NCBI GenBank assembly: GCA_945622055.1
Contig: CALZBV010000001.1
Location: 1 to 36,639, forward strand
Source: an uncultured Clostridia bacterium
GTDB taxonomy: Bacteria; Bacillota; Clostridia; Lachnospirales; Lachnospiraceae
Direction: 5' to 3'
Length of the DNA stretch: 36,639 nucleotides
Part shown: positions 9,799 to 29,347 of the stretch, piece after piece
Numbering within the stretch: position 1 is the first letter of the stretch
Layout of the letters: the number at the start of each line of letters is the position of its first letter
Made by a program: the position numbers and the translations under genes
Notes under the pieces: model-generated
Database searches by the model: none
Told to the model about the DNA's origin: nothing
The model's input: only the letters and a program-made list of their open reading frames with translations

Positions 9799-10926
9799 AT
9801 GTTTGAGAAAATCGAAACCCCGTGTTATGTTGTGGATGAGGCTAAGCTTGTGCAGAATCTGGAGCTTCTTCATCAGGTGGAGGAACGAAGCGGTGCACAT
9901 ATTTTACTGGCGCAGAAGGCATTTTCCATGTTCCGGCTGTATCCGCTGATAGGAAAATATATCAGCGGCACTACCGCCAGCGGTTTGTTTGAAGCAAGAC
10001 TCGGAAAAGAAGAGATGGGAAAGGAAAATCATGTGTATGCACCGGCCTATAAGGAAGCACACATGAAGGAGCTGGTTACGATTTGTGACCATATCATCTT
10101 CAATTCCTTTGCACAATATGAAAAATATAAACAGATTTGTAAGAATGTCAGCGTTGGAATACGAATCAATCCGATGTGCTCTACGCAGGAGGGGCATGCA
10201 ATTTATGACCCATGCGCACCCGGCTCCAGGCTTGGAGTGACAAAGGAGGAGTTTCGCGGGGATGTATTGTTTGGTGAGGGTGGCATTGAGGGACTTCATG
10301 TGCATACGCTTTGTGAGCAGAATTCCGATGCACTGGTTACAACGTTTCATGCGGTAGAGGAGCAGTTCGGTGAGCTTCTTCACAAGGTAAAATGGCTGAA
10401 TCTTGGGGGCGGTCATCACATTACCCGCCCGGATTATGATGTGGCTACGCTGGTAGATTTGATTAGAAGCATCCGTGAGAAATATCATGTGGAGGTGTAT
10501 CTGGAGCCGGGAGAGGCTGTAGCGTTAAATGCGGGCTATCTGGTGACGGAGGTGTGTGATAAAGTAAAAAACGGCATGGAAATATTGATTTTAGATGCCT
10601 CCGCAGCCTGTCATATGCCGGACGTGCTTGAGATGCCGTATCGTCCGCCGCTACGGGATGCCAAAGAGGCAGGGGAGAAGAAATATACGTACCGTCTGTC
10701 TTCCCTTACCTGTCTTGCCGGGGATGTGATTGGAGATTACAGCTTTGACCGGGAAATCAATATAGGAGACAAGCTTGTTTTTGAGGATATGGCAATCTAT
10801 TCTATGGTGAAGAATAATACGTTTAACGGAATTCCGCTGCCGGATATTTCTGTTTTGCATGAGGACGGAAGTGTGGAGCTTGTCCGCCGGTTTGGCTATG
10901 AGGATTTTAAAGGAAGGCTGTCATAG
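9799..10926 (+). CDS. nspC: carboxy(nor)spermidine decarboxylase
   Basis: 375 aa, alanine-racemase-fold decarboxylase-like sequence (LNLGGGHH, EPGEA). Paired with the CASDH gene. Confidence 0.8.
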   Translation: MFEKIETPCYVVDEAKLVQNLELLHQVEERSGAHILLAQKAFSMFRLYPLIGKYISGTTASGLFEARLGKEEMGKENHVYAPAYKEAHMKELVTICDHIIFNSFAQYEKYKQICKNVSVGIRINPMCSTQEGHAIYDPCAPGSRLGVTKEEFRGDVLFGEGGIEGLHVHTLCEQNSDALVTTFHAVEEQFGELLHKVKWLNLGGGHHITRPDYDVATLVDLIRSIREKYHVEVYLEPGEAVALNAGYLVTEVCDKVKNGMEILILDASAACHMPDVLEMPYRPPLRDAKEAGEKKYTYRLSSLTCLAGDVIGDYSFDREINIGDKLVFEDMAIYSMVKNNTFNGIPLPDISVLHEDGSVELVRRFGYEDFKGRLS

Positions 10927-10943
10927 GGGATAAAGGAGGAACT

Positions 10944-12062
10944 ATGTTACAAAATACAACACCTCTTTCGGACGGGTTTTTTATGCCGGGGGAGTTTGAG
11001 CCGCAGCGCGGCTGCCTTATGGTATGGCCGGAACGCCCCGGCTCCTGGCCGTATGAGGCAAGGGAGGCCAGAAAGGCGTTCGCGGAGATTATTCGCAAAA
11101 TTGCCCGTAGCGAGGAGGTTTTTGTTGCGGTAAGTGAGAAGGGAGAGGCATCTGCAAAGGAGCTGCTTTCGCAGGTTCCGAATGTGAGACTCTTCCGTGC
11201 GGAAACGGAGGATGCCTGGGCACGTGATATCGGGCCGACCTTTGTGAAGAATAAGGAAGGGCTGGTCCGTGCCGTTAATTGGGAGTTTAATGCCTGGGGC
11301 GGTGCATACAACGGGCTTTATGCTTCCTGGGAAAAGGATAATGCCTTTGCACAATTTTTTGCAAGGGAACAGGGCTATGAGATGTATGAAGCGGCTCCGT
11401 TTGTGCTGGAAGGAGGAGCCATTCATTCCGACGGACAGGGAACGGTACTTGTTACGGAGGCATGTCTGCTGAGTCCGGGACGTAACCCGAAGCTTTCCAA
11501 AGAAGAGATAGAACAAAAGCTTTTTTTGTACCTCGGGGCAAAAAAGGTTATCTGGCTGCCGCGTGGAATTTATAACGATGAAACGGATGAGCATGTAGAT
11601 AATTTCTGTGCGTTTATACGCCCGGGGGAAGTGGTTCTTGCGTGGACGGAGGATGTGAACGACCCGCAATATGAAATGTCCATGGCAGGGCTGCGTGTGC
11701 TGGAAGCGGAAACCGATGCCTGCGGACGGAAGCTTTTGGTGCATAAGCTTCCGGTTCCGGAGTATCCGGTATGTGTAAAGGAAGAAGAGCTTTGCGGTTA
11801 TTCGTTTGAAGAGGGAGAGGATACCAGAGAGGCCGGAGAGCGTCTTGCGGCGTCTTATGTAAATTTTTATTTCTCGAATGATGCAGTTTTAATGCCTGCG
11901 TTTGGTGGAGAAAATGAAGAAAGTGACAAGAGAGCAGAGAGCATTTTACGTAAGCTTTGTCCGGAGCGTGAGGTACTTCCGATTCCTGCAAGAGCAATAC
12001 TGCTTGGCGGTGGAAACATCCACTGTATTACACAACAGATTCCGCTTGGACGAACCAGGTAA
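10944..12062 (+). CDS. aguA: agmatine deiminase
   Basis: 372 aa with the C-terminal catalytic motif GGGNIHCITQQ and WxRD near the N-terminal third (DAWARDIGP). Confidence 0.88.
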   Translation: MLQNTTPLSDGFFMPGEFEPQRGCLMVWPERPGSWPYEAREARKAFAEIIRKIARSEEVFVAVSEKGEASAKELLSQVPNVRLFRAETEDAWARDIGPTFVKNKEGLVRAVNWEFNAWGGAYNGLYASWEKDNAFAQFFAREQGYEMYEAAPFVLEGGAIHSDGQGTVLVTEACLLSPGRNPKLSKEEIEQKLFLYLGAKKVIWLPRGIYNDETDEHVDNFCAFIRPGEVVLAWTEDVNDPQYEMSMAGLRVLEAETDACGRKLLVHKLPVPEYPVCVKEEELCGYSFEEGEDTREAGERLAASYVNFYFSNDAVLMPAFGGENEESDKRAESILRKLCPEREVLPIPARAILLGGGNIHCITQQIPLGRTR

Positions 12063-22344: not shown

Positions 22345-23415
22345 ATGGTAGATAAGCTGAAAAAATGGGCAAATGAAATCTTTGTTGACGGATTATCCGG
22401 AATGGCAATGGGACTTTTTGCAACCCTGATTATCGGAACGATTATTCAGCAAATCGGGACACTAATCGGCGGCTCGGTCGGTGATTTTCTGTTTCAAATC
22501 GGAAAGCTGGCATCGGCTGTGACCGGGGCCGGTATCGGCGTAGGCGTGGCGATTAAGTTTAAGGAAAGTACCTTAGTGACGATTTCCGCAGCAACGGCAG
22601 GTATGGTAGGTGCATTTGCGTCGAAGCTGATTGCGGGAGCGGTAGTGAATGGTAGCGTGATTACCCTTGCGGGGCCGGGAGAGCCGTTAGGCGCATTTAT
22701 TGCGGCCTATGTCTGCATTCTGTTCGGACGGCTGGTTGCCGGAAAGACAAAGGTAGATATTCTGGTGACTCCGCTTGTTTCCATTCTGACCGGTTCTACG
22801 GTGGGGCTGCTTCTCGGCCCCCCGATTTCAAGCTTTATGACGTGGCTTGGTAGCATCATCAACTGGGGTACGGAGCAGCAGCCGTTTTTCATGGGCATCG
22901 TTGTTTCTGTCCTGATGGGTATGATTCTGACGCTGCCGATTAGCTCTGCGGCCCTGGGCGTATCGCTCGGACTTTCCGGTATTGCCGCCGGTGCGGCAAC
23001 GATTGGCTGCTGTGCCAATATGGTCGGATTTGCGGTGGCAAGCTACCGTGAGAATAAGATGGGCGGTCTTGTGGCACAGGGACTTGGAACCAGTATGCTT
23101 CAGGTGCCGAATATCGTGAGAAAACCGGTTATCTGGCTCCCGGCCATCCTTACCAGTGCCATCCTGGGACCGTTTTCAACGATGCTGTTCAAAATGACAA
23201 GTAACCCGGTTGGTTCCGGTATGGGAAGTGCCGGTCTTGTCGGCCAGATTATGACCTACCAGACGATGACCGAGGCCGGCTCGAGCCCGGCGGCAGTGCT
23301 TGTCTTAATTGTACTGTTCCAGTTTGCAGCACCGGGCGTACTTGCATTTCTGATTTCCGAGGTGATGCGCAAGGCCGGTTGGATTAAGTCGGGAGATATG
23401 AAACTGGAGGTGTAG
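22345..23415 (+). CDS. PTS EIIC-2-type polytopic membrane protein (PfoR-like)
   Basis: 356 aa, Gly/Ala-rich multi-TM protein. The N-terminus (FVDGLSGMAMGLFATLIIGTIIQQIG) matches my recollection of the PfoR / EIIC_2 family. No EIIA or EIIB partner is nearby. Confidence 0.55.
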   Translation: MVDKLKKWANEIFVDGLSGMAMGLFATLIIGTIIQQIGTLIGGSVGDFLFQIGKLASAVTGAGIGVGVAIKFKESTLVTISAATAGMVGAFASKLIAGAVVNGSVITLAGPGEPLGAFIAAYVCILFGRLVAGKTKVDILVTPLVSILTGSTVGLLLGPPISSFMTWLGSIINWGTEQQPFFMGIVVSVLMGMILTLPISSAALGVSLGLSGIAAGAATIGCCANMVGFAVASYRENKMGGLVAQGLGTSMLQVPNIVRKPVIWLPAILTSAILGPFSTMLFKMTSNPVGSGMGSAGLVGQIMTYQTMTEAGSSPAAVLVLIVLFQFAAPGVLAFLISEVMRKAGWIKSGDMKLEV

Positions 23416-23499
23416 AAAATATACACAAATCCGATTACCGGAAATGTTGATTCCGGATATGTTGTATACTGCTGATATCAAGTTACAAGGAGGATACTT

Positions 23500-24705
23500 A
23501 TGTCAGACGAAATCAAAGTCAAGAGAAACTCAGGAAAAATAAAAGTGGTTATCGCCGTCATGGCGGTAATCATAGTGGCACTTGCCGTTGCAGTCGTACT
23601 GCTCCTGCCAAAGGGCGGAACGGCAAAGAAGGTAGCAAAGCAGCTTTCGCTCGGAGCGAAGTATCTCTCGGAGCTTGAATATGAGCAGGCCATCGCAGCG
23701 TATGAGCTGGCCATCGAGATAGACCCGAAATGCGTGGATGCTTACCTCGAACTCGCAGATATCTACAGCGAGCTGGGCGAGTATGACAAGGCAGAGAAAA
23801 TCCTGAAAAAAGCAAAACGCGAAGTGGCTGAGGAGGAGGTTGCCCAAATCCGCCGGAAGCAGGAAAAGATAGAAAAGAAACGGGAAGAGGCAGAAGGAAC
23901 CCCAGAGCCGACAAAGGAGCCGAAGCCTACCGCAGAACCGGTGCAGACCCCGGAGCCAACCGCTACGCCTACTCCGGAGCCAACGGCTACTCCAACTCCT
24001 ACTCCGGAGCCAACCAAGTCGGTCGGAGGCCAGGTGACAATTACAGGAAGAACAGTGGAATTAGAAAATGCTGAGGTCGGTGACTATGTAACCTTCGGTA
24101 CCTACGAGCAGGACAATAACCTCGGCAACGGAGCCGAAGCCATCGAGTGGCTTGTATTAGACAAGCAGGACGGCAAGGTGCTGTTACTGAGTAAATACGC
24201 GCTGGATGCAAAACCATACAACGAAACAGATACAGCTGTCACTTGGGAAAACTGTACCCTCAGAAGCTGGCTAAACAGCGAGTTCTACCGTACCGCATTC
24301 AGTGAAAAGGAACGAAGCGCTATCGCAGAAACGCTGGTAAGAAATGCAGACAATCCGATGTATGGAACGGAGGGCGGAAATGATACGAGAGACAAGGTAT
24401 TCTTACTCAGTATCGGGGAAGCAACGACCTACTTTGATTCGGACCCGGATGCGTGCGACCCGGCAAGAAGAGCGAAGGTAACGGAGTATGCAAAGGCGCA
24501 GGGCGGTTTCGCATACAGCGAAGCAGAAGATGGATGGTATGGTACGACGGAGTATGACGGCAACGGCGAGTGGTGGCTGCGCTCGCCGGGCGTCGATAGT
24601 GGCAGCGTCGCGGGTGTCAACTACTATGGCTACGTCGGCCGTTACGGCGGCGATGTAGACTACGGCTCTTACGTCGTGCGGCCCGCTTTATGGATGGCGC
24701 CGTAA
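23500..24705 (+). CDS. membrane-anchored TPR / Pro-Thr-linker protein with a C-terminal ligand-binding domain carrying a DGR-type variable region
   Basis: N-terminal TM anchor (VVIAVMAVIIVALAVAVVLLL), a TPR-like segment, a PEPTATPT linker, then a domain with EWLVLD, LLSKYALD, CTLRSWLN, VFLLSIGEA, EWWLRSPG and VRPALW motifs. From memory this is the DUF6273-like family often used as DGR targets. Confidence 0.8.
   Translation: MSDEIKVKRNSGKIKVVIAVMAVIIVALAVAVVLLLPKGGTAKKVAKQLSLGAKYLSELEYEQAIAAYELAIEIDPKCVDAYLELADIYSELGEYDKAEKILKKAKREVAEEEVAQIRRKQEKIEKKREEAEGTPEPTKEPKPTAEPVQTPEPTATPTPEPTATPTPTPEPTKSVGGQVTITGRTVELENAEVGDYVTFGTYEQDNNLGNGAEAIEWLVLDKQDGKVLLLSKYALDAKPYNETDTAVTWENCTLRSWLNSEFYRTAFSEKERSAIAETLVRNADNPMYGTEGGNDTRDKVFLLSIGEATTYFDSDPDACDPARRAKVTEYAKAQGGFAYSEAEDGWYGTTEYDGNGEWWLRSPGVDSGSVAGVNYYGYVGRYGGDVDYGSYVVRPALWMAP
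23950..24015 (+). repeat. imperfect in-frame tandem repeat encoding the PEPTATPT linker (units start at 23950, 23974 and 24004)
   Basis: CCGGAGCCAAC recurs three times at spacings of 24 and 30 nt. Confidence 0.7.
24592..24675 (+). other. candidate DGR variable region (VR) core
   Basis: 28 consecutive codons between the conserved flanks EWWLRSPG and VRPALW. 19 end in C, 7 end in T and 2 are otherwise (GCG, GTA). They encode only V, D, S, G, A, N, Y and R, all reachable from AAC/AAT by adenine mutagenesis. Confidence 0.65.
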
Positions 24706-24730
24706 TCTGGCATCTGGAATCTGCCAATCT

Positions 24731-24752
24731 GCGAAAGGTGAAAGCCTTTTGC
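24731..24752 (+). other. stem-loop with a GAAA tetraloop 26 nt downstream of the VR gene stop
   Basis: GCGAAAGGU-GAAA-GCCUUUUGC, 9 bp including two G.U pairs. Two further small GC hairpins follow at 24760..24776 and 24786..24797. Confidence 0.5.
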
Positions 24753-24808
24753 AAATCAGGCGCGGCGGAGACGCGCAATCCCCGACGCCGTAAGGCGGCG
24801 AAAAAATT

Positions 24809-25174
24809 TTGGCAGGAAAGGAGGTGAGGAGCATCGCGAAGAAAGAAAGTGAGCTGATGGTGGTGACGAAGGCGAAGGATTTGTGTTCCTATGTGATGAA
24901 GATAACGGAACGCTCGCCAAAGCGGTTTCGTTTTACCTTCGTCAGCCGGTTACAGAATCTATCGTTAGACACGATAGAGAATATCTTTCGTGCCAATGAT
25001 TTGTTTGTCAGCAAGGGGGATGAAAGTGCGTTGGCTTTGCGGTTGGAATTTCAGCAAAGAGCACTAACCTCAGTCAGACTGCTTTCCTACTTTGCGTTAC
25101 TGGCAACAGAATCAGGCTGTCTGCTGACAAAACAGTATGAGCAGAATCCGATATTATTCACGATACATGGATGA
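24809..25174 (+). CDS. avd: Avd-like four-helix-bundle protein (DGR accessory variability determinant) with a non-native C-terminus
   Basis: The pattern TKAKDLCSYVMKITERSPKRFRFTFVSRLQNLSLDTIENIFRANDLF...LLTKQYEQ matches my recollection of Firmicutes/Bacteroidetes DGR Avd proteins. Homology stops at about 25144, and the last 9 codons are read out of frame from an RT fragment. The true start is uncertain (TTG 24809, GTG 24824 or ATG 24857). Confidence 0.65.
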   Translation: MAGKEVRSIAKKESELMVVTKAKDLCSYVMKITERSPKRFRFTFVSRLQNLSLDTIENIFRANDLFVSKGDESALALRLEFQQRALTSVRLLSYFALLATESGCLLTKQYEQNPILFTIHG

Positions 25175-25247
25175 CTGTATCCTTGTTCATGAGGATAAGC
25201 AATACTTAAAGCAGTGCCTATATAAGATGCGTGCATATGTTGAATAA
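25146..25247 (+). pseudogene. reverse-transcriptase fragment (motif C region only); DGR RT remnant
   Basis: The +2 frame relative to avd reads IRYYSRYMDDCILVHEDKQYLKQCLYKMRAYVE followed by a stop. This is the YxDD box plus the typical DK.YL helix. No RT motifs 1-4 lie upstream. A possible weak continuation in another frame (YENKTQV..TGLDSF, 25252..25308) follows. Confidence 0.7.
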
Positions 25248-25836
25248 GGTGTATGAAAACAAAACCCAGGTCACCTATGAGGTAACACAGACAGGGCTTG
25301 ACAGCTTTTCGCTTAAGGATTTTTCCGCACAGGCAGATGCAGGAACCGGAAAGCTGATGGAATTTATTGTAGATTCGGATGAAATCGGAGCAGAAACAGG
25401 ACAGTTCTTTTACAAGAACATGGATGGTCTGTTTGCGGAAAAAACCGGGTCAGGCAGCACAGGGGAGGACTCTGCAGGTGAAGCTTCCGGCACTTCCGAG
25501 GACAACACGCCGGTTTACACCGGCTCCGATAAATGTACCCACTGTAGCGGTACAGGAAAAACGAGAGAGGATTATGCGTGGTGTCACCGCACCGGAAAGA
25601 AGAACTGTCCGGACTGTAACGGGACGGGAAAGGAACGCTGTACCGGCTGTGGCGGCGACGGGAAAAACTGGGACTCGTTAAATGGAACATATTCTAAATG
25701 TTATAAGTGCTTTGGCAATGGTAAGATGACCTGCGATAAATGTCGAGGTACAGGTGATGTTAACTGTAACAGCTGTAATGGCAAGGGGTATAATCAGAAA
25801 ACCTGTACGTTTTGTTTCGGAACCGGAAAACAATGA
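25231..25836 (+). CDS. hypothetical protein with seven CxxCxGxG (DnaJ-CR-like zinc-finger) motifs; the N-terminus is possibly chimeric with RT debris
   Basis: Motifs CTHCSGTG, CPDCNGTG, CTGCGGDG, CYKCFGNG, CDKCRGTG, CNSCNGKG and CTFCFGTG lie in the last about 100 aa. No convincing SD precedes GTG 25231, ATG 25237 or ATG 25357. A strong terminator follows. Confidence 0.4.
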   Translation: MHMLNKVYENKTQVTYEVTQTGLDSFSLKDFSAQADAGTGKLMEFIVDSDEIGAETGQFFYKNMDGLFAEKTGSGSTGEDSAGEASGTSEDNTPVYTGSDKCTHCSGTGKTREDYAWCHRTGKKNCPDCNGTGKERCTGCGGDGKNWDSLNGTYSKCYKCFGNGKMTCDKCRGTGDVNCNSCNGKGYNQKTCTFCFGTGKQ

Positions 25837-25893
25837 TGCGCCGTTGAACGGTTACAAAATGATTTGCAATCCACGCGGTGAACCCGCGGAGCA

Positions 25894-25928
25894 GGAGCTA
25901 CTGTAGGTCTACAGTGGCTCCCTTTTTT
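25894..25928 (+). terminator. intrinsic terminator
   Basis: GGAGCTACTGTA...TACAGTGGCTCC (about 12 bp with one G.U pair) followed by CTTTTTT. Confidence 0.8.
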
Positions 25929-26242
25929 GAAATATTCACCAAATTCACTCCTGCTTTTTTGGTACATTTTTACAAACTTTTCATCCACATAAACAGTTCT
26001 CAAACCATTGATTTTAAAGGCTTTTCCGGTACCTTTTACTCTGTACACTTTTTTATTTTCCATTGCAAACACTCACTTTTTCTGCTACACTTTCTATACA
26101 GACAGTTCTAAGGAAGTGCTGATTAATTCAGTGCTTCCCAATAAATATTCAATTCTACGCTGTCTTCTTACGGCGGTTTCACGCCAAAGTTCCATTACTT
26201 TTTTGTTATATTGCAATTACGTTACTTGGGAGGAGGAATTAA

Positions 26243-27250
26243 ATGGAACAGGAGATTTTTACACAAAAGACAAAGGAAGAGGTTTTATTTAACCTCAAAA
26301 AGTCACCGGATGCCTACAGACGTTTTCTCGGACTGGACGAAAGGTGGCAGGAGCTTTTCATGGCATTCTGCACGGGAAAGAAAACACTGCCGGTACTCTA
26401 TGACACCGTATTCAAGAAGCTGATGGATCCGGAAGTCCACAGGGACCGGCTTGAGGACTGTGTTTCCAGCCTGCTTGGGAGAAAGGTGAAAATCAGGAAA
26501 GTATTGCCTGTTGAGGATATCCTGATGGACGGGGAAACCATCATGGTCATGGATATTCTGGTGGAGCTTGACGACGGCTCACTGGTACTGGTGGAAATCC
26601 AGAAGGTGCCGTACTATTTTCCGGCGGAGCGGGCGTCCTGCTATTCCGCAGATTTGCTGCTCCGTCAGTACAACAGCTTGAAAAGCAAGAAGGGCAAGGA
26701 CTTCAGCTACAGGGATTTACAGAAGGTCTACACTATCATCCTGTATGAGAAAAGCACGGCAGAATTCAAAACCTGCAACGAGATATTCGTACATCACGCC
26801 TCCACAGTCTGTGACAGCGGACTGGAGCTGAATTTCTTACAGGAATTCTACCTTATAGCACTTGACGTATTTGCCAAAAGCGAGTATGCTAAAGTTAAGA
26901 AACCGAACGACCGGATAAATGCCTGGCTGTCCTTCTTCTGTACGGAAAATACAGAAGATGCGATAAGGCTTTGTGAGATTTACCCGTGGCTTTCGGAGGC
27001 TTATAAAGAAATGGCAGGGTTTGCAGCCAATCCGGAGGAGTTGATAGGTATGTTTTCAGAAATGTTGCACGAGTTAGACCGCAATACTACCCGCTATATG
27101 GTAGATGATATGAGGGAGAAAATAGAAAAACAGGGCAAAACCATTGTCGAGCAACAAGGGACTATTGCCGAACTGCAGGGGTCTGTTACCGAACTGCAGA
27201 GATTAGTTGATGAGCAAAGGGCTGAAATCAAACGTTTGATGAAAAAATAA
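26243..27250 (+). mobile_element. PD-(D/E)XK nuclease family putative transposase (Rpn / Transposase_31-like) CDS
   Basis: 335 aa. The nuclease core pattern is MVMDILVELDDGSLVLVEIQK. The C-terminus is a coiled coil (IVEQQGTIAELQGSVTELQRLVDEQRAEIKRL). SD GGGAGGAGG lies upstream. I did not see terminal inverted repeats. Confidence 0.7.
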
Positions 27251-27291
27251 TAAACCCCGCCCTTGTCTGTTACCTGCTGCAAGGTCGGGGG
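27241..27291 (-). terminator. hairpin between convergent genes; the T-run is on the minus strand (terminator of the ABC-F gene)
   Basis: CCCCGCCCTTG...CAAGGTCGGGG (5+5 bp with one mismatch). On the minus strand it is followed by TTTATTATTTTTTC. Confidence 0.55.
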
Positions 27292-27307
27292 TTCAACTGA
27301 CTAAGTT

Positions 27308-29347
27308 TTACTCCGCCAGCTCTTCCCATTGTTCCATCAGCTTCTCAAGCCTGCCTTCGATCTCTTCCCGTTCCTTACTTAATTCTGTCAGTTTTGTATG
27401 ATCGGAAGCAATATCCGGGTTGGAGAGAGCGGTATCCAGCTTCTCCATTTGTTTCTCCAGACGCTCGATTTCTTCTTCCGTCTTTTTTAGGTCATTCTGA
27501 CGTTTGCGGAGGCGTGCCTGTTCCTCCTTTTGCTGCTGCCAGTCGAGCTTTGTGTCTGTGACAGCAGAAGACATACTACCTCCCGCGGAAGTGGCCGCGT
27601 CAAAGCCTGCGGAAGCACCGGAAGAACCGGAAGTCCCGCGCACGGTGGGAGCACCCGAAGCAGAAACACTGCCGACAGAAGCGCCGGCCTTCCCTTTCCC
27701 TTCCATACCGTACCCGATACCCTCTAAATAGAGTCGTTCCGTAATTTCCTTCTTTTCCAGATAAAAGTCATAGTTCCCCGGATAATTAAGGAGAGTCTGC
27801 TCCGTCAAATCAAGGATTCTTGTTGCGGTTTTATTGATAAAATAACGGTCGTGGGAAACGTACAGGACGGTTCCCTCGTAGGCGTTAACGGCATCCTCTA
27901 GGATTTCCTTGGACACGATGTCTAAGTGATTCGTCGGCTCGTCCAAAATAAGCAGGTTCGCATCCGAAAGCATGAGTTTGGCTAAAGATACGCGCCCTCG
28001 TTCACCGCCGCTTAAATCACGGATGCGCTTAAATACATCGTCTCCGGTAAAGAGGAATGCGGCGAGGACATTGCGGATGGCTGTGTTATCCATATACGGA
28101 TAGGTGTCCTGCAGCTCGTCAAACAAGGTCTTTTCGGCATGGAGTACCTGATGCTCCTGGTCGTAATAGGCGATATGCACCTTAGCTCCCGGCTTGATTT
28201 CTCCGGCATCCGCAGGCAAAAGTCCATTTATTATTTTAAGAATTGTAGTCTTTCCGGTGCCGTTCTTTCCGATAATGGCAACCTTTTCTCCGCGCTTAAC
28301 GTCAAAGCTTAAATCCGAAAACAGAGTCTGACTGCCGAAGGATTTCGAGAGTCCGGTGACAGTAAGAACGTCGTTTCCGCTCATGATATGCGGCTCTAAG
28401 CGAATCTTCATTTTACTGCGTACCTCGGTCGGTTTTTCGATACGTTCTACTTTATCCAGCATTTTTTCACGGCTTTCCGCACGTCTGATAGACTTTTCAC
28501 GGTTAAAGGAGCGGAGCTTTGCGATAACCTCCTCCTGATGCTTGATTTCACGCTGCTGATTTAAGTAATGCTGAATCTGAGTTTCACGTTGCTGTTCCTT
28601 TTTGACAGCGTAAGCAGAGTAATTGCCGGAGAAGGTCTGTGCCTTTCCACCGTCCAGTTCTACTACCTTAGTGACTACACGGTCTAAAAAGTAACGGTCA
28701 TGGGCAACAATTAAAACTGCTCCCGGATAGTTCATCAGATATGTTTCCAGCCAGGCGATAGATTCCATGTCCAGATGGTTGGTCGGCTCGTCAAGCATAA
28801 TCAGATCCGGCGAGGTGAGGAGCAGCCGTCCGAGTGCAATGCGGGTTTTCTGACCGCCGGATAAGGTCTGAATCTGTTTTTGAAAATCTTCTTCCGAAAA
28901 GCCGAGTCCTTTTAAGACGCCGACTACCTCGCTTTTATAGGCATAGCCATTTTGCATTTCGAAGGTATGGGTCAGGGATGTGTACTCTTTCAGAAGTGAT
29001 TCGAGCGCATCGCCCTCAAGTCCTTTCATTTCAAGCTCTATTTCACGGATGCGGGCTTCGGTTTTAAGAATTTCCGCCTTGACGGAAAGCATTTCCTCAT
29101 AAACGGTACGTTCCGAGGAAAGGTCCTGATGCTGGGAAAGGTAGCCGATGGTAGCCCCCTTTGCGGTAATGACTTCTCCGGAATCAGCAGGATATTCCTG
29201 CATGATAATTTTCAACAGGGTGGATTTTCCTGCACCGTTGATGCCGACAATCGCCATCTTTTCGCGTTCATTTATGTGAAAGGAGACCTGGTTGAGAATG
29301 ACAGCTTCACCAAAGGATTTGATAATATTTTTACATGCGAGTAGCAT
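27308..29347 (-). CDS. ABC-F family ATPase (two ABC domains, no TM domain; ribosome-associated class) with a Gly/Ser/Ala-rich linker and a C-terminal coiled coil
   Basis: Two Walker A motifs (GINGAGKST, GKNGTGKTT) and two signatures (LSGGQK, LSGGER). ATG at 29347 is preceded by GGAGG. The 82 upstream codons of the ORF-track call are AT-rich promoter DNA. Confidence 0.88.
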   Translation of the reverse strand: MLLACKNIIKSFGEAVILNQVSFHINEREKMAIVGINGAGKSTLLKIIMQEYPADSGEVITAKGATIGYLSQHQDLSSERTVYEEMLSVKAEILKTEARIREIELEMKGLEGDALESLLKEYTSLTHTFEMQNGYAYKSEVVGVLKGLGFSEEDFQKQIQTLSGGQKTRIALGRLLLTSPDLIMLDEPTNHLDMESIAWLETYLMNYPGAVLIVAHDRYFLDRVVTKVVELDGGKAQTFSGNYSAYAVKKEQQRETQIQHYLNQQREIKHQEEVIAKLRSFNREKSIRRAESREKMLDKVERIEKPTEVRSKMKIRLEPHIMSGNDVLTVTGLSKSFGSQTLFSDLSFDVKRGEKVAIIGKNGTGKTTILKIINGLLPADAGEIKPGAKVHIAYYDQEHQVLHAEKTLFDELQDTYPYMDNTAIRNVLAAFLFTGDDVFKRIRDLSGGERGRVSLAKLMLSDANLLILDEPTNHLDIVSKEILEDAVNAYEGTVLYVSHDRYFINKTATRILDLTEQTLLNYPGNYDFYLEKKEITERLYLEGIGYGMEGKGKAGASVGSVSASGAPTVRGTSGSSGASAGFDAATSAGGSMSSAVTDTKLDWQQQKEEQARLRKRQNDLKKTEEEIERLEKQMEKLDTALSNPDIASDHTKLTELSKEREEIEGRLEKLMEQWEELAE

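Follow-up and report, generated by a model that had tools for sequence, protein, structure and literature searches.

A chromosomal diversity-generating retroelement that has probably lost its core and kept its target gene

The stretch of DNA analysed here (the window, 36,639 nt) carries a gene with a variable repeat (VR), part of an avd gene and a short reverse-transcriptase (RT) fragment, lying in the order of a diversity-generating retroelement (DGR). The question it raises is whether this cassette can still diversify its target, or whether it is the remnant of one that once did. We conclude, with high confidence, that the locus is the wreck of a chromosomal DGR: a microhomology deletion and a second deletion inactivated the cassette, the VR froze and the target gene was retained.

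The same gene order is found in Bordetella phage BPP-1 (mtd-avd-TR-brt), where a target with a C-terminal VR is followed by avd, the template repeat (TR) and RT. Both systems have adenine-specific differences between VR and TR, and a lectin-like variable domain in the target. In contrast to BPP-1, the element in the window is chromosomal, and its target is a TPR and DUF6273 protein instead of a phage tail fibre. Moreover, its core (the Avd C-terminus, the TR and most of the RT) is deleted, so that the activity that defines a DGR cannot occur. A closer precedent is Treponema denticola, in which 8 of 17 isolates have neither RT nor TR and keep their target genes (Nimkulrat et al. 2016, PMC4891356); there, too, VR-bearing targets outlast the DGR core. 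The T. denticola core is plainly absent, whereas the window keeps readable scars, an Avd stump and a 33-codon RT stump, which permit a reconstruction at the level of single bases. The loss of a core beside a surviving target is an ordinary, already documented fate of DGRs, and the window offers a clean, base-resolved case of it.

The cassette core and its two junctions

We read the window against the closest Avd relative listed, P0002 (132 aa, 93% identical), which is encoded on L001, a 2-kb contig. L001 is an intact cassette, with avd at 46-444, a 118-nt AAC-rich TR at 479-596 and an RT of 379 aa at 711-1850. Its translation contains the DGR-type LGNQSSQ motif; NCBIfam has no DGR-specific RT model, and the L001 RT matches general RT families only.

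The avd remnant (24824-25144, plus strand) retains residues 1-107 of about 132, identical to the L001 Avd at 100 of 107 positions (tblastn, E=3e-61). It sits within a 121-aa ORF (24809-25174) whose 10 terminal codons are out of frame (NPILFTIHG and a stop). The lost 25 residues hold near-invariant C, L, G-A-W, S-D and R columns in an alignment of 24 Avd proteins; the window lacks an intact four-helix-bundle Avd, with the conserved C-terminus gone. A homologue search with the stump returned 430 relatives; among the matches listed, nearly all are about 113-168 aa long, mostly 129-132, and the sole exception singled out is the window's own 121-aa product. An exact 36-mer of the avd 3' end had no match in JGI metagenome contigs.

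The RT remnant (25146-25244, plus strand) is shorter still, corresponding to residues 244-276 of 379, the region of motif 5, with 32 of 33 residues identical to the L001 RT (tblastn, E=1e-16). Its YMDD box lies at 25164-25175 and a stop follows at 25245-25247. With the L001 RT as tblastn query, the 36.6-kb window yields no other significant RT-like match, and a DGR-clade RT with complete catalytic motifs is missing from it. Profile searches recognise both families, as the homology searches do, at scores below the curated cut-offs because fragments alone remain. NCBIfam DivGenRetAVD matches the avd ORF at 1.5e-7 (profile positions 1-50 of 104, 31.6 bits against a cut-off of 80) and Pfam bAvd does so at 4.3e-5, under its own curated cut-off, while Pfam RVT_1 matches the 36-codon ORF at 25137-25247 weakly, at 0.0037 (profile positions 148-176 of 205, 17.4 bits against 29.6).

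The two remnants meet at a junction that blastn alignments to L001 place to within two bases. Window 24780-25145 aligns with L001 1-367 at 90.5% identity, and window 25144-25240 with L001 1438-1534 at 87.6%, so that the alignments overlap in a GA microhomology of 2 nt at 25144-25145. The junction letters are GAGCAGA|ATCCG; the left parent goes on as ...GAGCAGATAGC and the right parent as ...CTTGGAATCCGC, with GA common to both. The missing segment, L001 368-1439, comprises avd codons 108-132, the TR, the TR-RT spacer and RT codons 1-243, where the ancestral state is inferred from L001, a relative at about 90% nucleotide identity; our search found no strain with an intact DGR in the window's genomic context. 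An initial sequence-only reading had already ended the Avd homology (...LLTKQYEQ) at 25144, exactly where the tblastn match ends, and had begun an RT YMDD fragment in another frame at 25146, followed by a stop. It had also estimated that about 0.8-1 kb, holding the avd 3' end, the TR and the N-terminal part of the RT, was missing between them; measured against L001, the gap is 1,072 bp and its content is as proposed, including a TR of 118 nt.

A second junction lies at 25241-25251, between the RT stump and the interior of a neighbouring cysteine-rich gene. Homology to the L001 RT ends at 25240, and homology to L090 (GCA_029012365.1), a syntenic genome, starts at 25247: window 25247-25308 equals L090 10647-10708 over 62 nt at 100% identity, beginning at codon ~216 of the P0242 gene. 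The base at which they meet is ambiguous, since TGAATAA may also be read as RT sequence that has lost 6 nt. Relative to these parents, RT codons ~277-379 are missing at the junction and, from the N-terminal part of the cysteine-rich gene, 215 codons or more. It probably marks a second deletion or, alternatively, the original boundary of the insertion. The sequence-only reading, which had proposed an internal deletion with further decay on the 3' side of the RT, agrees with the L001 alignment and with six more assemblies (see below). Its cut after about 33 RT codons stands as well; its tentative continuation of the RT in a third frame (YENKTQV...TGLDSF) does not. Those letters loosely resemble RT motif 6 (ELKLEFNEKTQI), but tblastn with the L001 RT gives no match there and the DNA is 100% identical to the interior of the L090 cysteine-rich gene.

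These junctions suggest the following course of events. The cassette would originally have had the order target gene(VR)-avd-TR-RT. One deletion by illegitimate recombination, about 1.07 kb long and with 2-nt microhomology, would have joined avd codon 107 to RT codon 244, taking the last helix of Avd, the entire TR and RT motifs 1-4. A second deletion would have fused the RT, at codon ~277, to the interior of the adjacent cysteine-rich gene. Lacking both template RNA and polymerase, and with its Avd broken, the cassette should be incapable of mutagenic retrohoming. The VR would keep the adenine-site pattern of its last diversification and would now evolve like ordinary DNA, and the target would persist as a normal surface or ligand-binding protein of fixed sequence. 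A cDNA-mediated origin of the first deletion was also considered; judging from the published BPP-1 mechanism, avd codon 107 and RT codon 244 match no known DGR RNA/cDNA boundary.

Upstream of the avd stump, a GC-rich hairpin with a GTAA loop is predicted at 24783-24800 (plus strand), directly before the avd ribosome-binding site, and has equivalents with altered stems in L001, L004 and L009. The called avd starts, TTG at 24809 and GTG at 24824, sit on or before that site. An ATC lies 8 bases past the GGAGG in the window (24820-24835) and in the intact L001 (46-60), where L004 and others have the avd ATG; ATC may be a non-canonical avd start codon in the window/L001 sub-lineage.

The retained target gene and its variable repeat

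The target gene (23500-24705, plus strand) is intact and encodes 401 aa. From N- to C-terminus, the protein consists of a hydrophobic segment or membrane anchor, TPR repeats, a Pro/Thr-rich linker and a DUF6273 domain containing the VR; Pfam assigns DUF6273 to residues 224-399 (3.8e-33) and also finds TPR families. DUF6273 is described as having a C-type-lectin-like fold and as a bearer of DGR variable repeats (PMC10743442). The same target family is used by DGRs of gut Clostridia and their phages, including the tentaclin cassettes (PMC10743442) and those in Faecalibacterium prophages (PMC11792537). Those DUF6273 DGRs are intact and often phage-borne, whereas the window holds an inactivated one among housekeeping genes (purL, PTS EIIC, ABC-F and enolase). 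Compared with the orthologues in L008 and L009, the dN/dS of the target outside the VR is 0.19-0.27, and dN inside the VR is 0.31-0.36; the target gene is under purifying selection.

The VR core (24569-24686, plus strand) aligns without gaps to the L001 TR (479-596). Differences fall at 23 of the 37 TR-adenine positions and at 8 of the 81 others (Fisher p=7.7e-9), which is the adenine bias that DGRs show; measured against the TR of the closest intact relative, it marks past activity only. The 8 non-adenine differences fit the divergence of about 10% in the flanks, and the VR was therefore once written by an L001-like TR. That template is no longer beside it: the TR lies inside the segment deleted relative to L001, and elsewhere in the window, with both strands searched, no ungapped match to the 118-nt VR exceeds 54/118, in agreement with a search by eye that had found no second copy. 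In short, the window has a target with its VR intact and neither RT nor TR, as a decayed or orphaned DGR does.

About 25 nt past the target stop, a hairpin with a 10-bp stem is predicted at 24730-24753 on the plus strand (DNA fold -10.3 kcal/mol, z=-3.4). L004 and L009 fold likewise at the same position, with changed stems whose pairing is kept, and in all three the flanks ATCTGCG...CGCAAATC are conserved around stems of differing letters. The window thus has both a lectin-like variable domain at the target C-terminus and a downstream hairpin (the IMH region). A target-site hairpin after the VR is known in DGRs, and in BPP-1 it is the target-recognition element (PMC3240598); the window hairpin fits that position. 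An Rfam scan of window 23000-27500 gave a chance-level match only.

To what extent the VR still changes can be judged from other assemblies. The 18-mer across junction 1 occurs in six further assemblies, L002, L003 and L099 from Logan and L091, L092 (a pig gut sample) and L093 from ENA, which come from different samples and different assemblers or pipelines and share the second junction too. L091-L093 reach upstream through the VR, and all four assemblies, including the window, are 100% identical over 24578-24705 and about 99.5% identical downstream of the VR; they are very close, so that the VR identity spans a short evolutionary time. Contigs with the exact PTS EIIC protein all stop before the VR and add no comparison of it. 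At the level of assemblies, ongoing diversification leaves no sign across the window and L091-L093. An active DGR would be expected to differ between samples, and the VR appears to be frozen, as the sequence-only reading had supposed and the four-way identity bears out.

The cassette could be dead in cis while a second intact DGR with a matching TR still diversifies the VR in trans. The target-side cis elements that this would need, the VR 3' end and the hairpin at 24730-24753, are intact, the lost cassette has close relatives in nature that are whole (L001), and service of remote targets by one TR is documented in T. denticola (PMC4891356). However, all 37 TR-adenine positions of the VR are alike in the four assemblies even though the adjoining 5' patch differs strongly, and the 36.6-kb contig has no RT or TR; we consider continued diversification in trans improbable. 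Far less credible is that the missing 1.07 kb reflects an assembly collapse or chimeric join in a genome whose real DGR is intact. The VR/TR repeat often disturbs short-read assembly of DGR loci, and several Logan contigs start between VR and avd, but the deletion starts within the avd reading frame and ends within that of the RT, which have no repeat in common, and the same 18-nt junction recurs in seven assemblies from different pipelines and samples, together with the second junction.

Two further features of this region are recorded here. A patch of about 75 nt at 24505-24578, immediately 5' of the identical VR stretch, differs between the window and L091-L093 by many substitutions and a 20-nt indel (GGFAYSEAEDGWYGTTEYDGNGEWW versus GAYWNDWDDEYYGNGWWF). 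The changes are not adenine-specific, and our guess is gene conversion from a paralogous DUF6273 gene. In addition, the independent Logan contigs L001, L002, L003 and L099 all start between the post-VR hairpin and avd (window 24752-24780), which suggests that the upstream sequence occurs in several variants or copies per sample, breaking the assembly graph.

Decay in related loci

Loss of the core has parallels among relatives. In L004 (10390-11060; also L005, L006 and L007), an avd whose product is 68% identical and a TR (about 10416-10545) are kept, and both DUF6273 targets of the DGR have adenine-biased VRs. In the RT, residues 1 to ~221 are gone: the TR-proximal hairpin runs straight into RT residue ~222 (...SQWFALYYLDG...YMDD), and a 126-aa C-terminal RT ORF is what remains. 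This RT loss, seen on five contigs, is an independent deletion with other breakpoints. L009 (1826-2184; pig gut, ERZ940941) has a target orthologue that is 75% identical, after which nothing but the pre-avd hairpin and a scrap matching RT residues 45-63 precedes a purF-like gene. This is a third independent loss of a DGR core, more complete than the others and in another genomic context.

We then scanned GTDB representative genomes with the Avd alignment, obtaining 80 loci (L010-L089), mostly labelled Clostridia (Lachnospiraceae, Oscillospiraceae), each of which was searched by tblastn with the L001 Avd and RT. None of the 80 has an Avd closer than 65% identity, so these representatives include neither the window's species nor a near relative with an intact cassette. 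The cassette is intact in about 49 of the 80 loci, and seven are uninformative because their contigs end too soon. Five (L068, L084, L086, L089 and L078) carry an Avd-to-RT fusion deletion without a TR/VR pair, like the window, seven have a truncated Avd and no RT, and three (L016, L040 and L083) have a truncated or frameshifted RT and keep the TR. Another seven have a full Avd without any RT within 2.8-5.9 kb; in five of them an adenine-biased TR/VR pair survives. L087, a possible Avd-to-RT fusion whose RT match is cut off by the contig end, is left out of the degraded total, and L062, which has a full Avd and a short RT fragment (residues 319-354) upstream of avd, is also left uncounted. Altogether, at least 15 of the 73 informative loci show visible degradation, which hints that DGR decay is frequent in gut Clostridia, affecting at least about one fifth of related loci. 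No two lineages share their breakpoints (Avd residues 63-107, RT residues 33-267), the pattern that random deletions would give.

One may ask whether such losses are favoured. Core loss could be a recurrent, selected 'lock-in', in which deletion of TR and RT is advantageous once a useful lectin-like variant has been found because it stops further costly mutagenesis. If true, this would explain why independent core deletions, each with its own breakpoints, occur in many lineages of this Avd family (the window, L004-L007, L009, L068, L084, L086, L089, L078, L016 and L040) beside intact targets under purifying selection. We hold it to be unlikely, and offer it as a speculation.

The arrangement in the window might instead be functional, as an Avd-RT protein that is split or fused by frameshifting, or as an RT with its N-terminal part encoded at another site, given that it is conserved in several strains and that Avd-to-RT fusions occur in other lineages (L068, L084, L086); we give this almost no credence, as only 33 RT residues of the YMDD motif-5 region remain before a stop, motifs 1-4 with their finger and palm residues are missing from the contig, the window has no template repeat, the 36-codon ORF is not preceded by an evident Shine-Dalgarno sequence, junction positions differ by lineage as random deletions would, and L099 has lost one nucleotide at 25242, 2-3 nt beyond the RT stump. 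The related strains share the arrangement and give no sign of a functional split RT.

The main consequence of these results concerns annotation. The 121-aa 'Avd', the 36-aa RT ORF and the 199-aa cysteine-rich ORF are best annotated as fragments of pseudogenes, and the target gene does not belong among actively hypervariable loci. More generally, the frequency of decay matters for judging what share of the 'DGR targets' listed in microbiome catalogues is truly diversified.

Neighbouring genes

L090 is syntenic with the window at 70-85% nucleotide identity, in the order LysR, purL, PTS EIIC, cysteine-rich gene, ABC-F, beta-CASP nuclease and, further on, enolase; it has the same neighbours and no DGR. 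The interval between PTS EIIC and the cysteine-rich gene is a variable spot (window 23480-25246, L090 8039-10646), where L090 has a DeoR regulator and small toxin-antitoxin-like ORFs at the place of the DGR remnant. A PhdYeFM/PIN pair between purL and EIIC in L090 is absent from the window.

The 199-aa ORF downstream of the RT stump (25237-25836, plus strand) is not part of the DGR. By a search of 1.8 billion representatives, it is the eroded C-terminal remnant of a CxxCxGxG-repeat (DnaJ-zinc-finger-like) protein, its segment being found inside P0242 (357 aa), P0245 (506 aa) and P0243 (841 aa); the matching stretch of P0242 reads ...EAEVYENKTQVTYEVTQTGLDSFKITGW... A homologue search with the ORF at E<=1e-15 found the near-identical P0241 only. 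The ORF lacks two internal stretches that are present in P0242 and P0243, one reading 'KITGW...EKGD', whose gap falls between two DSF motifs, and one of about 43 aa after FFYKNM. The L090 copy (10001-11074) lacks a segment between two GTGK/RTGK motifs, and L099 (402-1203) has frame-breaking 1-nt indels at 25242 and 25381 and 128 extra nt at 25420; the gene decays differently in each of the three genomes. In the full-length family, which reaches 841 aa, the N-terminal part has no Pfam or NCBIfam assignment.

Relative to L090, the window also contains an inserted PDDEXK_2 gene (Rpn-like, 'putative transposase') at 26243-27250, which is partly deleted in L099 (292 aa) and belongs to a 90% cluster of 19 members that includes many fragments. 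The host is probably a gut bacterium of the Lachnospiraceae, the name that cluster mates of the PDDEXK_2 protein bear. A related PDDEXK_2 copy has its 3' end directly upstream of the target gene in L009, and a role of PDDEXK_2 genes in moving or rearranging the DGR module is possible.
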